Below are positions 49,083 to 58,650 of a DNA stretch of 64,000 nt, one piece after another. How positions within the stretch are numbered: the first letter of the stretch is position 1; each line of letters begins with the position of its first letter. The DNA comes from Escherichia coli (lineage in GTDB: Bacteria; Pseudomonadota; Gammaproteobacteria; Enterobacterales; Enterobacteriaceae), in NCBI RefSeq assembly GCF_024223415.1, contig NZ_CP100500.1; one strand, 5' to 3'. A program made the translations under genes and the position numbers. The notes below the pieces were generated by a model, which had not been told where the DNA came from, did no database searches, and worked only from the letters and a program-made list of their open reading frames with translations.

Positions 49083-49767
49083 TTAAATGCCGAGTGGGAA
49101 AATATCATGGCCTTGTTCTTGCCAACTGGTGAGTTGCTGCTGTTGGGCGGAGGTTCGATTTTCACCGCACCACACCAGCAATGTACGGCCTTCGAATAGT
49201 TCAGGGCGTAGTTGATTGAGCGAGTGGGCGAGGACATCAATGCGCCATCCTTGTTGACTGGCAATCCAGCCCTCCAGCCACAGACGGGTGGTATCCTGAA
49301 TATTCCAGCCAACCACCAGCGCATCTTTACCCTGTTTTTTACGTGCCGAAGCCAGACAAATGGCGATGTAGTTGATCAGTACGCCGTCGAGGATCGCCAG
49401 CAGCGCCTGGAGAGTCGGTTGTTGGCACTGAAGCCGTCGGCGCAGAGGAATAAACAGATGTGTGGTGAGTGTCTGGGCGGGGTAATCCTGACCGCGCTCT
49501 TTGATCCACGTTCGCAGGCTATGTAGATTGCCGCTTTGCAGGTAAGTCAGTAATGTTTCTTGCTGATCGCGCCAGCCGTTCTGCACATCAACATTTTCAT
49601 TACTGAGCAGCATTTTAACTTTGCTGACCTGCACGCCGTTGTCGATCCAGCGTTTGATCTCGCGGATCCGGTCAATATCGGCATCGTTGAACAGCCGATG
49701 ACCGCCGTCTGTCCGTTGCGGTTTCAGCAATCCGTAACGCCTCTGCCACGCGCGTAACGTGACAGGG
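49083..49767 (-). pseudogene. mlrA: MerR-family curli regulator MlrA (YehV), 5'-truncated by prophage insertion
   Basis: Minus-strand translation matches MlrA from ...PVTLRAWQRRYGLLKPQRTDGGHRLFNDADIDRIREIKRW... to the native C-terminus; the first ~16 codons (MALYTIGEVALLCDIN, part of the HTH) are replaced by phage DNA. Confidence 0.85.
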
Positions 49768-49804
49768 ATTAAGGGTAAACTAACTGATTTTACAAGTTTT
49801 TATT

Positions 49805-51091
49805 TTACCCCACTTTCTTATGGGGCATACATGGGACACTTTCAGATAGTCTTTTGTTAAGGAGTTCTATCTGTTCGTGATTGTTGTCTTTCATCCATGC
49901 TCCGTAAACATTGAATACCATTTGTGCGTTTGTGTGGCCCATCTGGCTTGCGATAAAACTAGGATTAGCTCCAGCGGCAAGTGACCAGCATGCATAAGTA
50001 TGCCTGGATTGGTACGATTTTCTGTGTCTCAGACCTGCGCGTTTTAAGATACTTGTCCATGACTCCCTGATGGAGTCAACCTTATAGTGCGGTCCGGAAA
50101 ACTGCCGCTGTTTTATTACCTGAGGACTAAAAACAAAAGTGCATTTATGCACAGTACTTCTCCCATATTCCCTCTGCTTTACCTCTACAGAATGTTGCTT
50201 TCCAAGCATGGTCATTTCCGCCTGACTTTTAAGAGCATCAATAGCTGGTTGAACCAGATGAATTGTCCTTCCGGTGCCAGCATCGGTTTTTGGTGGAGTG
50301 AATTCGCCAAGTTTTGTATAATTCCTACGGATGGTTATAGTCCTTGCTTTAAGGTCTATATCTTCCCATGCCAGCGATACCAACTCCCCGTGACGAATAC
50401 CCGTGTATACAGCGAGAATCCACAGGTTTTTTGTTTGTTGATGACGGCAAGCCTCAATAAAACGAATAAATTCGTCACGGGTGAGAGGATCTGGTTTTAC
50501 CTTGGACTTTTTTAAGGGAGCCAGACCGTTAAATGGGTTTCCTGAGGTATAACCATTATCTGTTGCAAATTGAAACATTCCAGCTATGGTTGTCATATAG
50601 TAGTTTACCGTGACCACTGAGCGCCCTTTTATGGAAGAAGTCTTTCCATTAGAAAGCTTTTGGTAACCGGTCAACAAATCTCTCCTTACGAAAAGTAAAT
50701 CCTCTTTTGTTATGGATGAAACCAGTTTTTTTTCACCTAACATTGGTAACATGTTTTTAATTACTGACTGGTAACGGTTAAGTGCATTCGCACAAATCTC
50801 AATTTTCTTAAGGTCCAACCATTTTTCCGAAAGTGCCTTAACGGTTATCTCTCTTTTTCCCAGACCAAAGTGTTTCAGGTTAGGGGAATTAGGGAACTGC
50901 GCGGCGTAGTCGAAACTCCCCATTCTGATTGCAAAACAAACGGAAGTGCGAAGTTCACCTGCGATCTTCCGGTTTTTGGCGGTGTCAGGAACACCGAGGT
51001 TTTCTCTGACACGTTTGCCATTATAGTGAAACCATATACGGAGTGATCCTCCATGGTTTTCAACGCCTGTCGGGTATGATACGTTACTCAT
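49805..51091 (-). CDS. int: Phage tyrosine integrase
   Basis: 428-aa ORF; C-terminal catalytic-domain residues (RHTYACW, GHTNAQMVFNVY); transcribed toward the att junction. Confidence 0.9.
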   Translation of the reverse strand: MSNVSYPTGVENHGGSLRIWFHYNGKRVRENLGVPDTAKNRKIAGELRTSVCFAIRMGSFDYAAQFPNSPNLKHFGLGKREITVKALSEKWLDLKKIEICANALNRYQSVIKNMLPMLGEKKLVSSITKEDLLFVRRDLLTGYQKLSNGKTSSIKGRSVVTVNYYMTTIAGMFQFATDNGYTSGNPFNGLAPLKKSKVKPDPLTRDEFIRFIEACRHQQTKNLWILAVYTGIRHGELVSLAWEDIDLKARTITIRRNYTKLGEFTPPKTDAGTGRTIHLVQPAIDALKSQAEMTMLGKQHSVEVKQREYGRSTVHKCTFVFSPQVIKQRQFSGPHYKVDSIRESWTSILKRAGLRHRKSYQSRHTYACWSLAAGANPSFIASQMGHTNAQMVFNVYGAWMKDNNHEQIELLNKRLSESVPCMPHKKVG

Positions 51092-51124
51092 TAAACCTCC
51101 CAGACGTCCAGGAGCATTAACAGG

Positions 51125-51379
51125 TTAACCGGAACTTGCATTTTTGGCACCTGGTTGTTTCTGGTTTTCGATCCATCGCATAATTTCTTCGATGTTGTAC
51201 AGGCATTCACTGTAGTGCCCCGGATCACCTTCTACAGCGTAATGGCGGTATTCTTTTCCCTGCATCCATGACTTTCTTCTTGCCCGCTCAATGGTGCCAG
51301 GCTTTAGCCCTGTTGATGCAATGAGGACTCTCTCCGTACACCATTTGCTGGGGGTTATCTGATAGATGATTGTTTGCAT
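51125..51379 (-). CDS. Putative excisionase / small DNA-binding protein
   Basis: 84-aa ORF immediately upstream of int in the same orientation; assigned by position and size only. Confidence 0.5.
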   Translation of the reverse strand: MQTIIYQITPSKWCTERVLIASTGLKPGTIERARRKSWMQGKEYRHYAVEGDPGHYSECLYNIEEIMRWIENQKQPGAKNASSG

Positions 51380-51535
51380 GCCAACCTCATAAAATTTTCA
51401 TCCACGGCAGTGGCACCACACATCAAACATTCGCTTCACAACTTCACGACAGTAGAAGCCGTCAACATCTCGCGTCAGGTCATAGCGATTGCCATAACGC
51501 TGGCGCACCCATAGTTCAAATGCTTTATTCATTCT

Positions 51536-51778
51536 TTACTTCCTTTTCATGGCCCGTAATTTTTTCAGATGAGCTTCCTGCTCTGTTTCTGCCAGAATTT
51601 GTCGGTATTCCTGGTGATCGAGCCGTTCAAACAGTTCATTAAAATCGTTTATTTTTACCGACTGTGTTCTCCCATCCATTCTTCTGTACAACACAGTGTT
51701 GTTTATGCAGCGAATAATTTTTACCGGGTAGCCAGCACTATCGGTGTATATCTGACCACGTTGAATCAGAGCGAACAT
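51536..51778 (-). CDS. Hypothetical phage protein
   Basis: 80-aa ORF in the leftward early operon. Confidence 0.45.
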   Translation of the reverse strand: MFALIQRGQIYTDSAGYPVKIIRCINNTVLYRRMDGRTQSVKINDFNELFERLDHQEYRQILAETEQEAHLKKLRAMKRK

Positions 51779-51865
51779 TCCTTTATCCCCAGCGGAAAAG
51801 CGAATACAGAATAAATGCCACCGCTATTGCAACTCCTACTGCGGTGAATGCTTCAGGCCAATTCA

Positions 51866-52495
51866 TCATTTCACCTCCACGCCGATCCCGGCAATAACAC
51901 AATCCCGTTTGATAGCTTCTTTCACCCAGCGTTTATAGGTTTCCGGATGGAATTTTGCGTTTTTTCCGGTACCGCTCCAGAATGCCTTTGATGTGATATC
52001 GGGCAGGGTGATGGTCAGGCCTTTCTTCTTGCTGCCTTCAGAACTTTTGCAAAAAGTTAATGCGTCGCGTAGTTCTTTAACACACGCATAGTTTTCTGCT
52101 TTCTCTGGGTCGCCGGTACGGTGTTCAGCTTCTTGTCTGCACCATTTGATGACTTTCTCTGCGGCTGCGTGGAGACGCTGACGTTGCCAGTCGTATGTGT
52201 CGACCAGCCCATATGCGTGATTCTTTGCTTTGCTTAATTCAGCGACGAGGCATTCGGAATCAATCAAATTATTTTCCGCAGCGGACAGCGCTTGTTTAAG
52301 TCGCTCGATTTCTTGAGCCATGTAGTAGCCGGTTTTACTCCAGGTATCGACATCATCGTCACTCATATCCAGTTCCATCGACGCCATCAGAACGGCGTCG
52401 TGATAGTTCTGGCTACCGCAGGTGATTGCAACGACGTAGGAGTCACTATTTTCTCGTTTATGGATAAGTACAACTGGGTTTTTGATCTTGCTCAT
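51866..52495 (-). CDS. Hypothetical phage protein
   Basis: 209-aa ORF; no motif I can recognise. Confidence 0.55.
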   Translation of the reverse strand: MSKIKNPVVLIHKRENSDSYVVAITCGSQNYHDAVLMASMELDMSDDDVDTWSKTGYYMAQEIERLKQALSAAENNLIDSECLVAELSKAKNHAYGLVDTYDWQRQRLHAAAEKVIKWCRQEAEHRTGDPEKAENYACVKELRDALTFCKSSEGSKKKGLTITLPDITSKAFWSGTGKNAKFHPETYKRWVKEAIKRDCVIAGIGVEVK

Positions 52496-52595
52496 TCCGC
52501 ACCTCAGTAATTCATTAAAAATTTATATTCAATCAGCGCACCGAAAACGACGGACGCCAGCAGCAGACCAAACAGCATGGACAGGAGGAATGACT

Positions 52596-52820
52596 TCATC
52601 GCTTTGCCTCCCGCTGTACGATTTTGTAGGCGCGCAGGATGTCGCGTGTTTTTCCTGACAACGATGACTTAACCCAGAAAAAGCCGCTGCGGTTTTCATA
52701 GATCCCCTGTACATTAAACAGCACCGCATCAACAACGCGGTTATGCTTTTGCAATGTCAGGCAGGAACTGGTGATCACGATGTTCGCTACGGCGCCATAG
52801 TCCTGGTATTGGATTTTCAT
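52596..52820 (-). CDS. Hypothetical phage protein
   Basis: 74-aa ORF abutting the next ORF; a 31-aa hydrophobic peptide ORF (MKSFLLSMLFGLLLASVVFGALIEYKFLMNY, ~52504-52599) overlaps its stop by ATGA. Confidence 0.45.
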   Translation of the reverse strand: MKIQYQDYGAVANIVITSSCLTLQKHNRVVDAVLFNVQGIYENRSGFFWVKSSLSGKTRDILRAYKIVQREAKR

Positions 52821-53159
52821 TTACATGTTCCCCATAACGGTATCGCTCATGTCGTTAACCATGCTCTGCCAGATTTCTTTGCCGCTTTGCGTCAGCTCGT
52901 TTCCACGAACGCATTTGCTTAACAGCTGAATACCAACGGCTTCCCATTGGGGGTAATTTTCTTTGATAGCCTTCAGAGCATAACCATCGATTAAATCCCT
53001 GATACCTTTAACCCCACCGATGATGTTTACTCGTATGGATTGCCCATTGACATTAATCATGAAATGATCTCCGTTGGTGGCGGATATGTGGTTGTGCAGT
53101 GCAGCCGCATACTGATTTGCCAGCGCATTGAGGCGGAAATTTTGTGTAATGAGTGGCAT
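52821..53159 (-). CDS. Hypothetical phage protein
   Basis: 112-aa ORF, stop/start abutting neighbours. Confidence 0.5.
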   Translation of the reverse strand: MPLITQNFRLNALANQYAAALHNHISATNGDHFMINVNGQSIRVNIIGGVKGIRDLIDGYALKAIKENYPQWEAVGIQLLSKCVRGNELTQSGKEIWQSMVNDMSDTVMGNM

Positions 53160-53905
53160 TATTTACCCTCCCAACCAATCACCTGAAACAGCCCCATTTT
53201 CGGGTGATACCAGCGGGTACCGCGTGGCTCTGCCTCTGACATCATCTGATGAAATGCTTTCATGAACGGCTCAAGCTCCACGATAGCCCGGCGAGAAAGA
53301 AGACCATCTGGCGTCATAAATTCGTGCGTATCGGTTGGGATGCTGTAGGCATTGACCAGATTGCGGCACTTGGCATCAGTCATTCCGCTTTTGGCGACCA
53401 CCTGGCGATAACCGACATATCCGGCGCGCATATTTCCGCGTTTGATGTTCTCCACAGCTTTGGTGACCGTTTCGATCTTCTCTTCAACATGACTCAGGCG
53501 CTTCTGCTGGCGAACGGCATCGGCGGCCATTGCAGCGATCATCTCCATTTCCGTCAGCGGCGCGTGAGTTCGGAAATAGCTGTTAACCAGTTCGCGCTGA
53601 ACCTGCCATGCAAGAGTATCGTTAAAAGGCTTCGTCAACATCAGGTAACCAGACTCGAAAAGAATGATCCCTTTGGCAGTTCGCGCGGCAAAGGCATCAG
53701 AAAGTGACTCCGTACGTATTACGTCCGCAGTCATTTCAAGAAAATCCACCCCTTCGATAAAGTGAGAACGGTTGCGGTTAAACGCAGCACGGGCGGTACC
53801 TTCCGGGCGCTGGTGGACGTCATCAATCATTGCAAATGTCACAACACGCTGACCGCGATATTCGATTACCGGAAACTGTTTGTTGTTGATGGTTACAGTA
53901 TTCAT
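53159..53905 (-). CDS. Hypothetical phage protein, possibly antirepressor/regulatory-like
   Basis: Start placed at MNTVTINNKQFPVIEYRGQRVVTF (RBS GGAGAT upstream); domain assignment is from memory and uncertain. Confidence 0.5.
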   Translation of the reverse strand: MNTVTINNKQFPVIEYRGQRVVTFAMIDDVHQRPEGTARAAFNRNRSHFIEGVDFLEMTADVIRTESLSDAFAARTAKGIILFESGYLMLTKPFNDTLAWQVQRELVNSYFRTHAPLTEMEMIAAMAADAVRQQKRLSHVEEKIETVTKAVENIKRGNMRAGYVGYRQVVAKSGMTDAKCRNLVNAYSIPTDTHEFMTPDGLLSRRAIVELEPFMKAFHQMMSEAEPRGTRWYHPKMGLFQVIGWEGK

Positions 53906-53948
53906 TTTTATCTCCAGACAGCCCGGCGTGTAATACCGGGCATATGTA

Positions 53949-54776
53949 TTACTTAACCTGAATAAATGGTGTGTTGGCACCGCTGGTCATGTATTGCGGC
54001 AGTGTACCGTTCCACTTGTTGATGGCTTCCAGCTCCATAACGTTTGGGTTCTGGCGCAGAGCTTCACCGCGTAAACGAATAGCATCGGCTTCGGCCTGGG
54101 CTTTTGTGCGAATCGCATCTGCCTGTCCGGCAGCTTCCGCGCGCAACATGTTGGCTTCCGCTTCGCGCTGTTTTACTTCCTGCTCGCGTTGCAGGGTTTT
54201 CTGGTTGGCCGTGACTTTGGCATTAATGCTGTCGATAACGGTTGGCGGGTACTCCGGCTTACCCACATATGAGAGGCTCATTACCTGAATACCGATAGGT
54301 GTCATCTCTGCCTGAATGTCTTTAAGAGCTTCATCCAGCAGCTCAGACTTGCCGCCGTCGATAAATTTGTCAGTGGTCATTTTGCTGGCCAGTCGGTTGA
54401 GTGCGTCGGCGATCTTCTGGCGCAGGTCAGTGTCGGTAATGTCATCCACGCCTTTGCGGTAGGTCTGAAACACCGTGGTAACTTTGGATGGATCAACTTT
54501 GTAGGCCACGCCAATGTGATAGCCGATGGTTGTACCGTCACTCATCTGGAAACTGAACGGTTCATCGTAGGTCTTCATTTGTTTGAAGGTGGGGAAGATA
54601 TAAACTTCAGTATTCCAGCCAGTCCAGTAGCGACCAACACCGACCACCTCACCGACGCCTTTGTCGTCGCCCAGTTTATTTACCTTGATGCCAACATTAC
54701 CTGGTTCAACGCGATCGCAACCGACAAGGCCAATAGTCGGCAGAACAATGGCTAAAGCAAAAATAATTTTTTTCAT
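53949..54776 (-). CDS. SPFH/band-7 (prohibitin/flotillin-like) domain lipoprotein
   Basis: 275-aa ORF; lipoprotein signal MKKIIFALAIVLPTIGLVGC; SPFH-like core followed by an Ala/Glu/Arg/Gln-rich coiled-coil tail (EQEVKQREAEANMLRAEAAGQADAIRTKAQAEADAIRLRGEALRQ). Confidence 0.7.
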   Translation of the reverse strand: MKKIIFALAIVLPTIGLVGCDRVEPGNVGIKVNKLGDDKGVGEVVGVGRYWTGWNTEVYIFPTFKQMKTYDEPFSFQMSDGTTIGYHIGVAYKVDPSKVTTVFQTYRKGVDDITDTDLRQKIADALNRLASKMTTDKFIDGGKSELLDEALKDIQAEMTPIGIQVMSLSYVGKPEYPPTVIDSINAKVTANQKTLQREQEVKQREAEANMLRAEAAGQADAIRTKAQAEADAIRLRGEALRQNPNVMELEAINKWNGTLPQYMTSGANTPFIQVK

Positions 54777-54961
54777 CTTTTATCCTTAGTGAAAGAAAGA
54801 CCCTTGTAAATGGCATAAATGCAGGGCGGGGTCAGAAACGCCAGTGCAAAGCCAGAAATAACTGCTATCGTATCCTTCATGGATATAAGGAACGGAACGA
54901 TTAATCCGTAAATACATGTGATAATTGCCAGTGATATAACTATTCTGAAATAAATGTTCAT
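54773..54961 (-). CDS. Small membrane protein, translationally coupled to the SPFH lipoprotein
   Basis: 62-aa ORF with two hydrophobic helices; stop overlaps the SPFH start by 4 nt. Confidence 0.55.
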   Translation of the reverse strand: MNIYFRIVISLAIITCIYGLIVPFLISMKDTIAVISGFALAFLTPPCIYAIYKGLSFTKDKR

Positions 54962-55021
54962 GGTCCTCCTGATGTATTCGGCTTGCCTTATTTAATTGCG
55001 TCATAGTTAATTTCGTTTACG

Positions 55022-55412
55022 TCAGAATGGTTTTGTTGCCATCAGTTCGTAATATCCGGCGCTCCATGTGTCATATTTTCTGAACCATTTTTCTGTATAC
55101 TGTTTCCTGGCGATGAGTCTGCGCAGTCGTCTGATTGTTCGCTGGTGTGCGCGGGTATACTCTGTGGTTGATTCTCCACGTTTCCATATCTCATTCCTGT
55201 TGAAGATAAAACGCTTGTCAGGATAGCGTTGTCGGAATCCTGAACGTTCAAAAGCGCGGGTGGTCATAAAGAATGCCAGGTAACGAATTGCCGTTTTTCG
55301 AGTGAGGCATTTTTTTTGTTCTTCCGTGGCGTGTTACAAAAAATAACGGGCCGACGGGTGTATCATGTTTCTGTAATGCCTGGTCAATGGCGCTGGCGGT
55401 GCGGTTGTCGAT
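55022..55412 (-). pseudogene. Hypothetical phage gene split by a frameshift at a T8/A8 homopolymer
   Basis: A 57-aa ORF (MIDNRTASAIDQALQKHDTPVGPLFFVTRHGRTKK...) and the 81-aa track ORF 55022..55267 become one ~130-aa ORF if the A8 run (plus-strand T8 at ~55309-55316) is shortened by 1 nt. Confidence 0.4.
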
Positions 55413-55601
55413 CATTTCTTTATTTCTCCCGAATAACGTTCATGACTCATTACTTCCCAGTTCCGGCCGTCGTCTTTCGATAACAGCCGCCAGCGACGGT
55501 TAACCTTCAGACTGAGATATCCGGTGCGCTGTATCCGATGCGGAAATATCCGTCGGCATCGGTACAACAACAGGACCTGCAATGCCTGCCGGTGGATCCG
55601 C

Positions 55602-55817
55602 TCAGGAATGCGTGTTGCTGTTAATGCCACCGGTTTCCTCCTGAGCAGGTGCTGTTATCTGATACCCCGCTCTTTCTGCCAGCCGTATGAATGTATCCAT
55701 GCTGGCAATCAGCTCGCCATCGCGGACTTTGCAGACACCTGTGACTTGGCCATTTTCAATTGTCATAACGATCTGCACTTTTTCGCGCACAACAGATACA
55801 GGGGATAAATTAGCCAT
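55602..55817 (-). CDS. Hypothetical phage protein
   Basis: 71-aa ORF, 1-nt overlap with the upstream ORF. Confidence 0.45.
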   Translation of the reverse strand: MANLSPVSVVREKVQIVMTIENGQVTGVCKVRDGELIASMDTFIRLAERAGYQITAPAQEETGGINSNTHS

Positions 55818-56176
55818 CAGTTAATTCCTCCACTGGTATATTTTTCTTTTTCGTAATCAACAACCTCTTTTAAAAGGTTGTCTACAATTAACTTCCCCGA
55901 TTCAGTTAGATACTCAGTGTGTTGATTAATATTGATGGCATTGCGGTATGCGGCAAGTATTGCGGTCTCGCCATCCGTCCGTCCAAATTCAACACGGGTA
56001 AGACCTTCAAATCGTAATAACAGTTGTGTCATGAAGTGTTCCGTAATTTCGATGGTAGTTAACCCTCCGTCAGGAAGATTTACGATGAGAAGATTTCCTC
56101 CTGTTTTACGTTGCATCCGCTGTAATGCTGTTGTGACTATGCGGTGACGATATTTACCAATGATTTCATATGCCAT
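55817..56176 (-). CDS. Hypothetical phage protein
   Basis: 119-aa ORF. Confidence 0.5.
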   Translation of the reverse strand: MAYEIIGKYRHRIVTTALQRMQRKTGGNLLIVNLPDGGLTTIEITEHFMTQLLLRFEGLTRVEFGRTDGETAILAAYRNAININQHTEYLTESGKLIVDNLLKEVVDYEKEKYTSGGIN

Positions 56177-56360
56177 TTGTTATTTCCCGTATGCTTTCCT
56201 AAGAAACAGTATTGCAACTGACCAGTATCCTGCATTAGCCATTAATAAGGCGGTTTTATAAGCGCTTCTATTTTTCATGTATCACCATTATTTTCTGGTT
56301 GTGAAAACTCCCGACCAGAGGCCGTCATGTTTTTATGTGTGATTTTTTATTGAGTATTCT

Positions 56361-56552
56361 TTATTCGTTACGTAGTGTTTCTATATACTCGTAAGCCATT
56401 TCACAGGTCTTATTCATGGACCTGATGAGACAACATAAATAATCGTCTAACTCTCCTGAGTCGGGCGAATTCTTAAATATAAATTCAAGCATTGATGTAT
56501 TCTCTTTTATTTGTGCCGCCACTTCCTCAAGAATATTTAATGGAGTTTTCAT
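56361..56552 (-). CDS. Hypothetical phage protein
   Basis: 63-aa ORF overlapping the upstream ORF by 4 nt. Confidence 0.4.
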   Translation of the reverse strand: MKTPLNILEEVAAQIKENTSMLEFIFKNSPDSGELDDYLCCLIRSMNKTCEMAYEYIETLRNE

Positions 56553-56773
56553 GTTCTTTGCTCCTTTAATGTGTCTCTGGCGCTTCTGGCGTATTGTTGT
56601 GCAAGTAAAAAGATGTCATCCGAAAGTTCATCACATTCTTCATCACCTGAAGCCGAAATGATTAACCCCGCTTCAAGCAGTACGGCAATGTGATGAAAAG
56701 CTGTTTCCGGTTCGTTGGTGAGGCCTTTGAACATTTTCATTTTATGCTTCCTCCTGATTTTGTTTATAAGCAC
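56549..56773 (-). CDS. Hypothetical phage protein with basic N-terminus
   Basis: 74-aa ORF, N-terminus KIRRKHKMKMFK. Confidence 0.4.
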   Translation of the reverse strand: MLINKIRRKHKMKMFKGLTNEPETAFHHIAVLLEAGLIISASGDEECDELSDDIFLLAQQYARSARDTLKEQRT

Positions 56774-57161
56774 CAGTCAGTAACCACATCGGATCACAGC
56801 CAAGAACATTAGCCAGAGGAATAATCTGGCTTGCCAGAGGCTCCCTCTTGCCACTTTCCCACTGGATGATAATTTCTTCATCGAGATTGAGCAGCCTGGC
56901 GAGTTCGGCGGTTGTTAAGCCGCAGTCTTCGCGTTGGGTGCGAATCCGATTCTGGGAATTAATAGCTAAATTTTGTTTGCATAAACGTGACGCGGTGAGG
57001 CTATATTTTTGAGTTACAGCCAGGATGGAGCTGGCAAGTTCAATTAACTCAGGGTTATTGCTGCTATACAGTAGTGCACCAGCCCCTACTAAGAGCTGAA
57101 TATTCTCAAGAGCATCGTGCTGATTTGTTGGTAACCCCATATACGATGACATTTTTCTCAT
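56742..57161 (-). CDS. HTH (XRE-like) domain protein, first gene of the leftward early operon
   Basis: 139-aa ORF with a C-terminal helix-turn-helix (GLTTAELARLLNLDEEIIIQWESGKREP). Confidence 0.55.
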   Translation of the reverse strand: MRKMSSYMGLPTNQHDALENIQLLVGAGALLYSSNNPELIELASSILAVTQKYSLTASRLCKQNLAINSQNRIRTQREDCGLTTAELARLLNLDEEIIIQWESGKREPLASQIIPLANVLGCDPMWLLTGAYKQNQEEA

Positions 57162-57212
57162 CCTCTATAATTGCTTTGGTGAGTTCGATACCTATGTCAA
57201 GATAATAGGTTT

Positions 57213-57244
57213 ACCGATTTCACCTGTCAATCGGTTTATCGATT
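57213..57244. promoter_or_regulatory. Putative OL operator palindromes
   Basis: ACCGATT-N9-AATCGGT and AATCG-N6-CGATT inverted repeats, sharing half-sites with the cI-cro palindrome. Confidence 0.5.
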
Positions 57245-57250
57245 TTTTCC

Positions 57251-57276
57251 AAAAAAAAGCCCACTTAAGAGTGGGC
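57251..57276 (-). terminator. Intrinsic terminator downstream of cI
   Basis: On the minus strand, GCCCACT-cttaa-GTGGGC followed by T8. Confidence 0.75.
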
Positions 57277-57294
57277 GGGTTAAATGATTTTTGC

Positions 57295-57987
57295 TTATGC
57301 AAAACGGTGTAGTGTCATAGGCCAACTGACAATTACTTTTCCGTCAATGTGAAGTTGTTCGAAGTCTTCCGGTTCGATAGCCCAATCCTTGTAAGCTGGG
57401 TTGTCAGATATCACCGTTAGAGTATCTTTGATTTTTTGAAGTCTTTTGATGTGCGATGTTCCAGAGTATGTAAAGGCGTATATACCATCACCATTAAATG
57501 TGCGAACTGATACATCTACAAATACCAAGTCTTCAGGGTCTATTGTGCCTTTCATACTGTCGCCGTGGGCGTTTATTGCTTTGATTGCTGATGCTGGTCT
57601 GCCGCCAAAAACTCTTGATGCGTATCCTGGCTCTATCGCTATAGATCTGACAATGTCAGGAAAATCAGAGTTATAACTACCAGGTCCGCAACTATATCTG
57701 ATGTCTAAAACATCCACGACATACGAATCAGTAACCCAATCTTCAGAAATGTTACGTATTTGGTGTGAGTCTGCAGAGGTCACGATTTCCATTGGGCCAA
57801 CACCCGATGCGAGCCATTCCGGGTTAACGCCCAAAACTTTTGCTATTTCGACTGTTTTTCTGGAACCGTTGGCTTTGTTAAGTAGTTGGTTAACACTGGA
57901 CTGAGCCATACCCACTTCTTTGGCCAGCCTACCTTGCGTAAATTTTGCGTTGCGCATAGCTAAATCAAGTCGTTCTGAAAATGTCAT
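57295..57987 (-). CDS. cI: Phage CI-type repressor (N-terminal HTH, C-terminal S24 LexA-like peptidase)
   Basis: 230-aa ORF; HTH (FTQGRLAKEVGMAQSSVNQL) and C-terminal autocleavage-domain motifs (GDSM...K); divergent from cro. Confidence 0.85.
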   Translation of the reverse strand: MTFSERLDLAMRNAKFTQGRLAKEVGMAQSSVNQLLNKANGSRKTVEIAKVLGVNPEWLASGVGPMEIVTSADSHQIRNISEDWVTDSYVVDVLDIRYSCGPGSYNSDFPDIVRSIAIEPGYASRVFGGRPASAIKAINAHGDSMKGTIDPEDLVFVDVSVRTFNGDGIYAFTYSGTSHIKRLQKIKDTLTVISDNPAYKDWAIEPEDFEQLHIDGKVIVSWPMTLHRFA

Positions 57988-58020
57988 TGCGATTTTCCTC
58001 CCCTCTCTATCTTGGCTAGT

Positions 58021-58038
58021 TTATCGGCTTTCCGATAA
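58021..58038. promoter_or_regulatory. Putative OR operator
   Basis: TTATCGG-cttt-CCGATAA perfect palindrome between cI and cro. Confidence 0.6.
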
Positions 58039-58106
58039 ATATTCTAGGTTTAACGTTGAATATCGCTTTTCCTGTTGTTATTATGCGTTCAATAGGAGAT
58101 GCGATT

Positions 58107-58394
58107 ATGAAACATAAAGCCATAGAGAAAGCTATTGAGATTCTTGGAAGTCAGCAAGCCTTAGCCAAGCGATGCGGAAAGGCCCAGTCAACAGTCTGCG
58201 ATTGGTTGAACTGCAAGAACAAGATTTCACCAGAATTTGTGCCGTTATTGGTTGCAGCTGTCGACGGAAAGATCCAAGCGTATGAATTTCGTCCAGACCT
58301 ACCAGAGCTTTTTCCACATCCAAGCTTAGCGCGCACGGGGGAGGTGAAGGGCTTGTATGTCCCAGAATTACGTTCAGACAGAGATGCCATCTAG
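58107..58394 (+). CDS. cro: Cro-like HTH regulator
   Basis: ATG at 58107 with RBS AGGAGA; MKHKAIEKAIEILGSQQALAKRCGKAQSTVCDWLN (HTH); track ORF begins at an upstream TTG. Confidence 0.7.
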   Translation: MKHKAIEKAIEILGSQQALAKRCGKAQSTVCDWLNCKNKISPEFVPLLVAAVDGKIQAYEFRPDLPELFPHPSLARTGEVKGLYVPELRSDRDAI

Positions 58395-58650
58395 GTACTG
58401 CCAGGCAGACGAAGAGTGGATTCAGCAGCAGTTACAGAGGCTGCCTCCGTCACTGAGACGGAAGGTCGCCCTGAAATATGCGGAGGTATACGAAATCACT
58501 TTTGACGCTGAGCCTGTTTCATTCCGCAAGGAGAACAGAGCAAGGCACGAAGCAAACACAAGGCTCCGCCTGTTCGTGAGAAATCAGGGCAGAGCTTTAC
58601 AGGGGTATACAACTCAGCCGCCCCTGGCAGGAACGCAATCGCGCTCCTGA
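58357..58650 (+). CDS. Hypothetical phage early protein (cII position)
   Basis: 97-aa ORF with RBS GGAGGTGAAGG; overlaps the cro 3' end. Confidence 0.5.
   Translation: MSQNYVQTEMPSRYCQADEEWIQQQLQRLPPSLRRKVALKYAEVYEITFDAEPVSFRKENRARHEANTRLRLFVRNQGRALQGYTTQPPLAGTQSRS

Follow-up and report, generated by a model that had tools for sequence, protein, structure and literature searches.

Phage lambda has operators at approximately -18, -42, and -65 from the PR start and an OL spacing of about 24 bp, and the operators of phage 434 are 14 bp long with the form ACAA-N6-TTGT. More generally, CI and Cro share three imperfect palindromes, and the covariation between their recognition helices and half-sites is code-like (PMC6649833). 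In CP-933P of Escherichia coli O157:H7, a YdaS protein acts as Cro, with intergenic operators that also serve the cI analogue PaaR2, and its first place of binding is PRM; this prophage also has a separate PL/OL set (PMC8630535). In this work, we found that the inverted repeats beside the cI-like gene of another E. coli prophage are in all likelihood the OL and OR operators of a lambda-type switch. The sequenced phage with the closest repressor is Klebsiella phage Mulock (MN098327; 52% identity), and no repressor in the sequenced-phage collection exceeds this value. Relatives of Mulock include ST13-OXA48phi12.5, ST11-VIM1phi8.1, and the IMG/VR loci L028-L032. Among sequenced phages, megablast recovered none that carries this immunity region. 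Phage phi467 has flanks in common with the locus, but its repressor (40% identity) and the repeats in its spacer are different. The operator sequences of this group and of the sister groups gave no paper in a full-text literature search.

The sequence analyzed (hereafter the window) is a 64,000-nucleotide stretch of an E. coli chromosome with 99.9% identity to strain Ch1, in which the flanking genes are osmF, yehYXW, and mlrA. A lambdoid prophage is inserted beside mlrA; the window holds its left part, including the integrase gene, and the prophage continues past the right end. The features of the immunity region are listed in Table 1. The cI-like and cro-like genes are separated by a 119-bp spacer. 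The cI-like protein, named "LexA family transcriptional regulator" in RefSeq, matches Pfam Peptidase_S24 (PF00717; 7.5e-17) and PHROG phrog_4 ("transcriptional repressor"; 1e-53), and its HTH has matches to HTH_19 (22.9 bits), HTH_3 (20.9 bits), and Phage_CI_repr that are all weak and under the Pfam gathering scores. Among PDB entries, its matches are the 434 repressor N-terminal domain (2r63 and 1per; the best solved match, E ~4e-4) and UmuD structures. The alignment shows no variation at Ser144 of the GDSM motif, at Lys181, or at Cys100-Gly101, such that both the catalytic Ser-Lys dyad and the Cys-Gly cleavage motif of the S24 domain are present at the sequence level. The gene has a Shine-Dalgarno leader and is thus not leaderless. 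The recognition helix of this protein reads AQSSVNQLLN. The divergent cro-like gene encodes a protein that matches YdaS_toxin (PF15943; 1e-14, with 54.5 bits against a cutoff of 30) and phrog_35 ("transcriptional repressor"), and its recognition helix, AQSTVCDWLN, has a start (AQSTV) that resembles the AQSSV of cI. An Rfam scan of 49500-64000 found no RNA family.

Table 1. Genes, promoters, terminator, and candidate operators of the immunity region, with the integrase gene. Positions refer to the window; motif scores are matches to the 12 defined positions of W-ATCGG-N4-CCGAT-W.
Feature	Position	Strand	Sequence or product	Motif score	Remarks
Integrase gene	49805-51091	minus			Left part of prophage
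DicA/CII-like HTH gene	56742-57161		139-aa product		First gene of the leftward PL operon; left of cI, past the terminator
PL	57202-57230	minus	TTGACA-17-TATTAT		11/12 to promoter consensus; drives the operon starting with the HTH gene
OL-b (equivalent to OL1)	57204-57219		AATAGGTTTACCGATT	11/12	Covers PL -10 and spacer
OL-a (equivalent to OL2)	57229-57244		AATCGGTTTATCGATT	11/12	Overlaps upstream edge of PL -35
cI-transcript intrinsic terminator	57251-57276	minus	GCCCACT-CTTA-AGTGGGC, then U8
cI-like repressor gene	57295-57987	minus	230 aa		Probable 434/Xre-type HTH (N-terminal) and S24 (LexA/UmuD-like) self-cleavage domain (C-terminal)
PRM (putative)	58018-58046	minus	TAGAAT-17-TAAACT		Weak, read by eye; OR-pal lies in its spacer and -10
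OR-pal	58022-58037		TATCGGCTTTCCGATA	12/12	At the place of lambda OR3; flanking bases extend the perfect palindrome to 58020-58039
OR-y (possible degenerate OR2)	58043-58058		TCTAGGTTTAACGTTG	7/12	Abuts PR -35
PR	58056-58084	plus	TTGAAT-17-TATTAT, TG extension		9/12 to promoter consensus
OR-z (probable OR1)	58061-58076		TATCGCTTTTCCTGTT	9/12	Left half intact, right half degenerate; in PR spacer
OR-x (possible fourth site)	58091-58106		AATAGGAGATGCGATT	10/12	Approximately +1 to +16 of PR, over cro ribosome-binding site
cro-like gene	58107-58394	plus	95 aa, YdaS family		Divergent from cI

The initial annotation had described a palindrome, TTATCGG-N4-CCGATAA, between cI and cro, together with related repeats next to a strong terminator on the left of cI. 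All of these elements are present. The palindrome is found at 58021-58038 with CTTT as its N4 and extends to a perfect 8+8 repeat (TTTATCGG-CTTT-CCGATAAA). On the left are ACCGATT (57213-57219), AATCGGT (57229-57235), and the AATCG...CGATT pair (57229-57244), beside a minus-strand hairpin followed by T8 with a folding energy of -12.4 kcal/mol. Judged from the alignment of these sites, their common element is the 16-bp W-ATCGG-N4-CCGAT-W, with ATCG-N6-CGAT as its core. Matches to this motif are concentrated in the two intergenic regions, which together amount to 252 bp: three of the five matches with a score of at least 11/12 in the 64 kb (Poisson P ~9e-7) and four of the 12 matches with at least 10/12 in the window (P ~1e-7) are located there. 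The motif was refined on the sites and then scored on them, such that these values are partly circular; a motif derived from OR-pal alone still finds OL-a and OL-b. The core is exact in OL-a (57230-57243) and OR-pal (58023-58036) and has one mismatch in OL-b (57205-57218) and OR-x (58092-58105). The further 10/12 matches that the window contains within the prophage, at 52531, 54282, 58637, and 59841, are not clearly above chance. A scan of the whole prophage, as the initial annotation had proposed, gave the same picture: in the near-identical Ch1 prophage of approximately 43 kb, the exact core occurs only twice, in OR-pal and OL-a, and three of the four matches with at least 11/12 are at operator positions, with the fourth inside gpJ.

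The layout of this locus resembles that of lambda in its divergent cI/cro pair, in the terminator between cI and PL, and in the S24 self-cleavage domain of the repressor. Its candidate pseudo-palindromic sites are placed at approximately -22, -40, and -61 relative to the start of PR, and paired sites 25 bp apart lie over the -10 and -35 of PL. Several features differ from lambda. Each site spans 16 bp around an axis that falls between base pairs and has an ATCG-N6-CGAT core, whereas those of lambda are 17 bp and of the TATCACCGC type; the consensus is best matched at the OR3-equivalent position; OL has only two sites; cI has a Shine-Dalgarno leader; rexAB is absent; and Cro belongs to the all-alpha YdaS family. 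With 434, the sites have in common a geometry of contacted cores of 4 bp, 6 bp between them, and an A/T-rich center, and the ACAAC-N4-GTTGT palindrome of the sister group formed by L035 and L039 resembles the 434 sites. However, the core (ATCG rather than ACAA) and the helix (AQSSVNQLLN rather than TQQSIEQLEN) are different, and the overall similarity is weak. CP-933P likewise has a YdaS-family protein in the Cro role and a separate PL/OL set, but PaaR2 belongs to another repressor family with no S24 domain as described, the repeats are 18 bp with the consensus GTTTAGTAA, and its YdaT and toxin-antitoxin genes are without counterpart beside the cI of the window. Mulock and the window have in common a nearly identical HTH (GRLAKEVGMAQSSVNKLLN), the same type of Cro, operators with the ATCG-N6-CGAT core, and the arrangement of PL/OL and PR/OR. 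The two differ in position 5 of the half-site, which is C in Mulock (ATCGC/GCGAT) and G in the window. Moreover, the OR region of Mulock has three clear sites, its OL region also has three, and its OR3 and OR2 are 27 bp apart compared with 21 bp in the window.

For examining the conservation of these sites, carriers of the same repressor were collected from complete E. coli genomes (24 in total; ~24/5,426) and from IMG/VR (22 contigs), and the window, three of these genomes, and the 22 contigs gave 21 distinct haplotypes. The N-terminal domain of cI is identical in all haplotypes but one (L026), and the intergenic DNA differs. Loss of the palindromes among phages with the same cI had been named beforehand as grounds for abandoning the operator reading; the cores were found to be nearly invariant. 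Core positions have a mean of 0.27 variant haplotypes compared with 1.88 for the other intergenic positions (Mann-Whitney P = 2e-4, which represents a trend rather than a true probability for related haplotypes). Variation is located in the operator centers, in the outer flanks (58021 and 58037), and above all in the hypervariable spacer between the left operators (57220-57225).

On the left side, OL-a and OL-b have a center distance of 25 bp. The core positions of OL-a are conserved, with variation chiefly at the central base 57238, and those of OL-b are mostly conserved, with variation at the central bases 57212-57213 and a change of G57216 to T in four haplotypes. Mulock carries AATCGCTAAAACGATA and AATAGCCAAGGCGATT at the positions of OL-a and OL-b, respectively. 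No counterpart of the third OL site of Mulock was found to the right of OL-a, because the terminator follows directly. This terminator (folding z -2.2) has a 7-bp stem (57276-57259), which is retained in the variants despite sequence changes.

On the right side, the spacer between cI and cro contains OR-pal as its single perfect site, along with three candidates of lower score. PR is predicted to start at approximately 58091, which is 16 nt ahead of the cro ATG. The center of OR-pal is thus at about -61 from the PR start (the site lies 55-70 bp upstream) and at about -18 from the inferred PRM start, although PRM was not called in the consensus promoter scan. The perfect palindrome covers the presumed promoter of cI instead of PR, in an OR3-like position rather than that of a predicted site for cro shut-off. 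Its core (58022-58036) is almost invariant in the 21 haplotypes, and the flanks (58021 and 58037) vary. When the OR spacers of Mulock, L028, and the window were aligned globally, they matched only at the cI-proximal site and in the stretch ahead of the cro ATG; because of this, the register of the other sites relative to the promoter was compared by eye. By this comparison, the register of OR-z after the -35 is that of OR1 in Mulock (ATCTCTTTTGCGATA) and L028. The ATCG of OR-z (58062-58065) is invariant and the remainder of the PR spacer varies among the 21 haplotypes, with the right half of the site reading CCTAT in four of them. OR-y sits where Mulock and L028 carry a perfect OR2; the block is nearly invariant and matches OL-b at 11/16 positions as a direct repeat, and it may represent a degenerate OR2. 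OR-x has one variant among the 21 haplotypes, but the ribosome-binding site is itself under constraint, which confounds this conservation, and the equivalent ATAG-N6-(C/T)GAT-T-ATG is also found in L028 and Mulock. The conservation of OR-z and OR-y could instead reflect promoter, UP-element, or ribosome-binding-site constraints.

Comparisons with more distant relatives, which are 43-52% identical in cI, link the half-sites to the recognition helices. In six cI/Cro groups that differ in their helices, the cI-cro spacer has an X-N4-X' palindrome of a type particular to the group, with half-sites of ATCGG, ATCGC, ATAAC, ACAAC, ATAGC, and ATACG, and within a group, cI and Cro have recognition helices that start alike. 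The helix starts of cI and Cro, respectively, are SQPAIQKM and SQPAVHKW in L040 (ATAAC-N4-GTTAT), SQAAIQKL and SQAAVQKW in L035 and L039 (ACAAC-N4-GTTGT), AQPSVWKL and KQPSVWAW in L033, L034, and L079 (ATAGC-N4-GCTAT), and AQPTIWRL and AQPTVWRW in L080-L083 (ATACG-N4-CGTAT). Mulock and L028-L032 provide the decisive case at the level of sequence comparison: their cI proteins are 49-52% identical to that of the window and their spacers are largely dissimilar outside the sites, yet the helices (AQSSVNKLLN in cI and AQST[IV]CDWLN in Cro) are nearly those of the window and the ATCG-N6-CGAT core is the same. Their OR regions have three sites with this core, namely, TATCGCCAAGGCGATT, followed by AATCGCATAGGCGATT directly beside a TTGACA -35, with OR1 as the third; their OL regions have AATAGCCAAGGCGATT, AATCGCTAAAACGATA, and AATCGCATAAGTGATA (ATCG/ATAG-type) around an identically built PL. 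The genes downstream of cI are different in these relatives, with no DicA-like neighbor, such that the sites travel with the cI/cro pair.

These comparisons bear on the question of which protein the palindromes serve. It appears quite improbable that they are bound by a regulator other than cI, be it Cro alone or the DicA/CII-like protein encoded directly downstream of PL as the third HTH protein of the region. In lambda, N15, and CP-933P, the first binding of Cro-type proteins is at PRM, and the best site of the window is located over its presumed PRM; moreover, cI and Cro are inseparable by comparison because they always travel together. However, the same type of site accompanies cI/cro without a DicA-like neighbor in Mulock and L028-L032, the helix start of cI tracks the half-site as well as that of Cro in all six groups, and a prophage with a repressor that does not bind at PL and PR would be left without means of immunity.

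The unit of recognition also needed revision. The initial annotation had taken the 7-bp TTATCGG/CCGATAA as the shared half-site and ACCGATT...AATCGGT as a related inverted repeat. We consider it very improbable that this 7-mer is the recognition unit and that ACCGATT-N9-AATCGGT is itself an operator. The arms do exist and are complementary, and AATCGGT is invariant among relatives. However, the outer bases (T58021 and A58037-58038) differ from phage to phage even where the DNA-binding domain of cI is identical, and a search for the 18-bp pattern TTATCGG-N4-CCGATAA with up to three mismatches found no second site in the immunity region, left sites included. The 7-mer TTATCGG occurs 14 times in the window compared with 7.7 expected and nowhere in the immunity region outside the palindrome. 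The half-sites of the left operators read AATCGG, AATAGG, CCGATT, and TCGATT, and the common half-site core at the sequence level is ATCG(G), which replaces the 7-mer. The ACCGATT...AATCGGT pair was likewise rejected as one operator. It consists of the right half of OL-b and the left half of OL-a; its half-sites point away from each other (CCGAT...ATCGG) and are separated by 11 bp, in contrast to ATCGG-N4-CCGAT, and the intervening bases are the most variable in the region. Furthermore, ACCGATT itself changes to ACCTATT or GCCGATT in relatives, and Mulock shows the equivalent false inner pairing (GCGATT-N9-AATCGC) because two palindromic sites are adjacent. Thus, the central idea of the initial annotation, that the repeats are immunity-region operators that predict the recognition sequence of the repressor, stands on clustering, conservation among phages with the same cI, position relative to the promoters, and covariation with the helix, and the 7-mer half-site and the ACCGATT...AATCGGT pair were given up.

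The 8+8 palindrome was not retained as significant in itself, as such repeats are common at the scale of the window (34 hits, or approximately 20 separate repeats, compared with about 10 in shuffles; most are GC-rich terminators). That the sites are chance palindromes in AT-rich promoter DNA, conserved only through promoter, terminator, and ribosome-binding-site constraints, is scarcely credible: such repeats are indeed frequent and OR-x, OL-b, and OR-y overlap the Shine-Dalgarno, a -10, and a -35, respectively, but the motif is enriched (P ~1e-6), conserved ATCG/CGAT blocks lie outside the promoter hexamers (57231-57234, 57240-57243, 58023-58036, and 58062-58065), and the same helix goes with the same core in largely dissimilar spacers and other helices with other cores.

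If the repeats serve as OL and OR operators, which is the preferred reading, the cI-like repressor would bind the 16-bp element as a dimer through its probable 434-type HTH, with the ATCG-N6-CGAT core being contacted and the T-rich center probably uncontacted. The YdaS-type Cro would be expected on the same sites; the operators are presumably common to both proteins because the recognition-helix starts are alike (AQSS and AQST). Repressor on OL-b and OL-a would block leftward early transcription from PL because these sites cover its -10, spacer, and -35 edge, and the terminator would insulate PL from the transcription of cI. On the right side, the weaker OR-z in the PR spacer, OR-y at the -35 edge, and OR-x over the start of the cro transcript may serve in the control of PR. 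Occupation of OR-pal by Cro, or by excess cI, would shut off cI synthesis, and the S24 domain would render the repressor cleavable after DNA damage. We infer actual binding, the preference of each protein for particular sites, and the position of PRM from the sequence.

One property of this arrangement is that OR has a single strong match to the motif and the sites expected to repress PR are weak (OR-z and OR-y). This may suggest a cI/YdaS-Cro switch wired otherwise than that of lambda, with the best operator over the cI promoter in all six groups, PR under half-degenerate sites together with a site at the cro ribosome-binding site, and a helix/half-site code, a possibility that we regard as rather doubtful. 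If this were the case, repression of PR would need cooperativity or OL-OR looping over approximately 0.8 kb, and the perfect site would be mainly a Cro target or a tight brake on the synthesis of cI. The code would read AQSS/AQST for ATCG, SQPA for ATAA, SQAA for ACAA, AQPS for ATAG, and AQPT for ATAC, and could be used to predict the immunity groups of enterobacterial prophages from sequence.

Very probably, the operators form an ordinary lambdoid set with an ATCG(G) specificity for which we found no description. In this case, the understanding of the switch mechanism would be unchanged, and the table of helices and half-sites would be a modest addition to the known Cro/CI code. We propose ATCG-N6-CGAT, preferably ATCGG-N4-CCGAT, as a concrete recognition sequence for an uncharacterized immunity type that is kin to Klebsiella prophage modules, and this sequence may be of use in prophage annotation, in the prediction of co-immunity, and in the design of reporters or inducible switches.

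In the cI-cro spacers of the family of loci that encode a cI repressor and a YdaS-type Cro (L028-L085, L086 from Klebsiella phage Mulock, and L087 from BTP1), no operator forms a more perfect palindrome than the cI-proximal one. This holds for each of the six specificity groups, where the sites that cover PR show less symmetry. In the variant locus L026 (IMGVR_UViG_2703718850_000006), which encodes a cI with 89% identity and the same recognition helix, the position of the perfect palindrome in the cI-cro spacer is occupied by TATAGGCATTCCGATA, with one core change. This locus has also gained an extra half-site, ATCGG, which lies downstream of the PR -10 and ahead of the ribosome-binding site of cro.

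We found a pseudo-operator right on the cro ribosome-binding site, just 5′ of the ATG, in the window (58091-58106), L028, Mulock, and L033/L034. The window, Mulock, and L028 share the form ATAG-N6-(C/T)GAT-T-ATG, and the pseudo-operator of L033 and L034 is AAAGC-AGGA-GCTAT, the same type as their own operators. These pseudo-operators hint at a fourth site at the PR transcript start. Further downstream, the operator-like 16-mer AATCGCGCTCCTGATT (58637-58652; 10 of 12 motif positions matched) lies at the extreme end of the phrog_852 ORF and may be a chance match or a distal repressor site.

Genes flanking the cI-cro region of the window.
Feature	Position	Strand	Context
ParE-family toxin-like gene	~55415-55603	-	inside leftward early operon
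HTH_3 protein gene (139 aa; phrog_4836, "CII-like regulator")	56742-57161	-	first in PL operon
phrog_852 ORF (unknown function)	58357-58650		cII position, next after cro
NUMOD4/HNH homing-endonuclease-like gene	58868-59500	+	between early regulatory genes and helicase/primase replication genes

In the leftward operon, the homolog of the HTH_3 protein in phage phi467 is annotated as DicA. To our knowledge, it is unusual for the N position of a lambdoid phage to be occupied by a third DNA-binding regulator, as it is here. The ParE-family gene is taken from RefSeq, which annotates it in the nearly identical prophage carried by E. coli strain Ch1. On the rightward side, a 217-bp non-coding stretch precedes the NUMOD4/HNH gene.

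The Cro of the window has 95 aa, compared with 80-81 aa in its relatives, and the extended 3′ end of cro (58330-58394) overlaps the phrog_852 ORF. Homology with the UMNF18/STEC313-type prophages breaks off at ~58345, suggesting a mosaic recombination junction within the end of cro.
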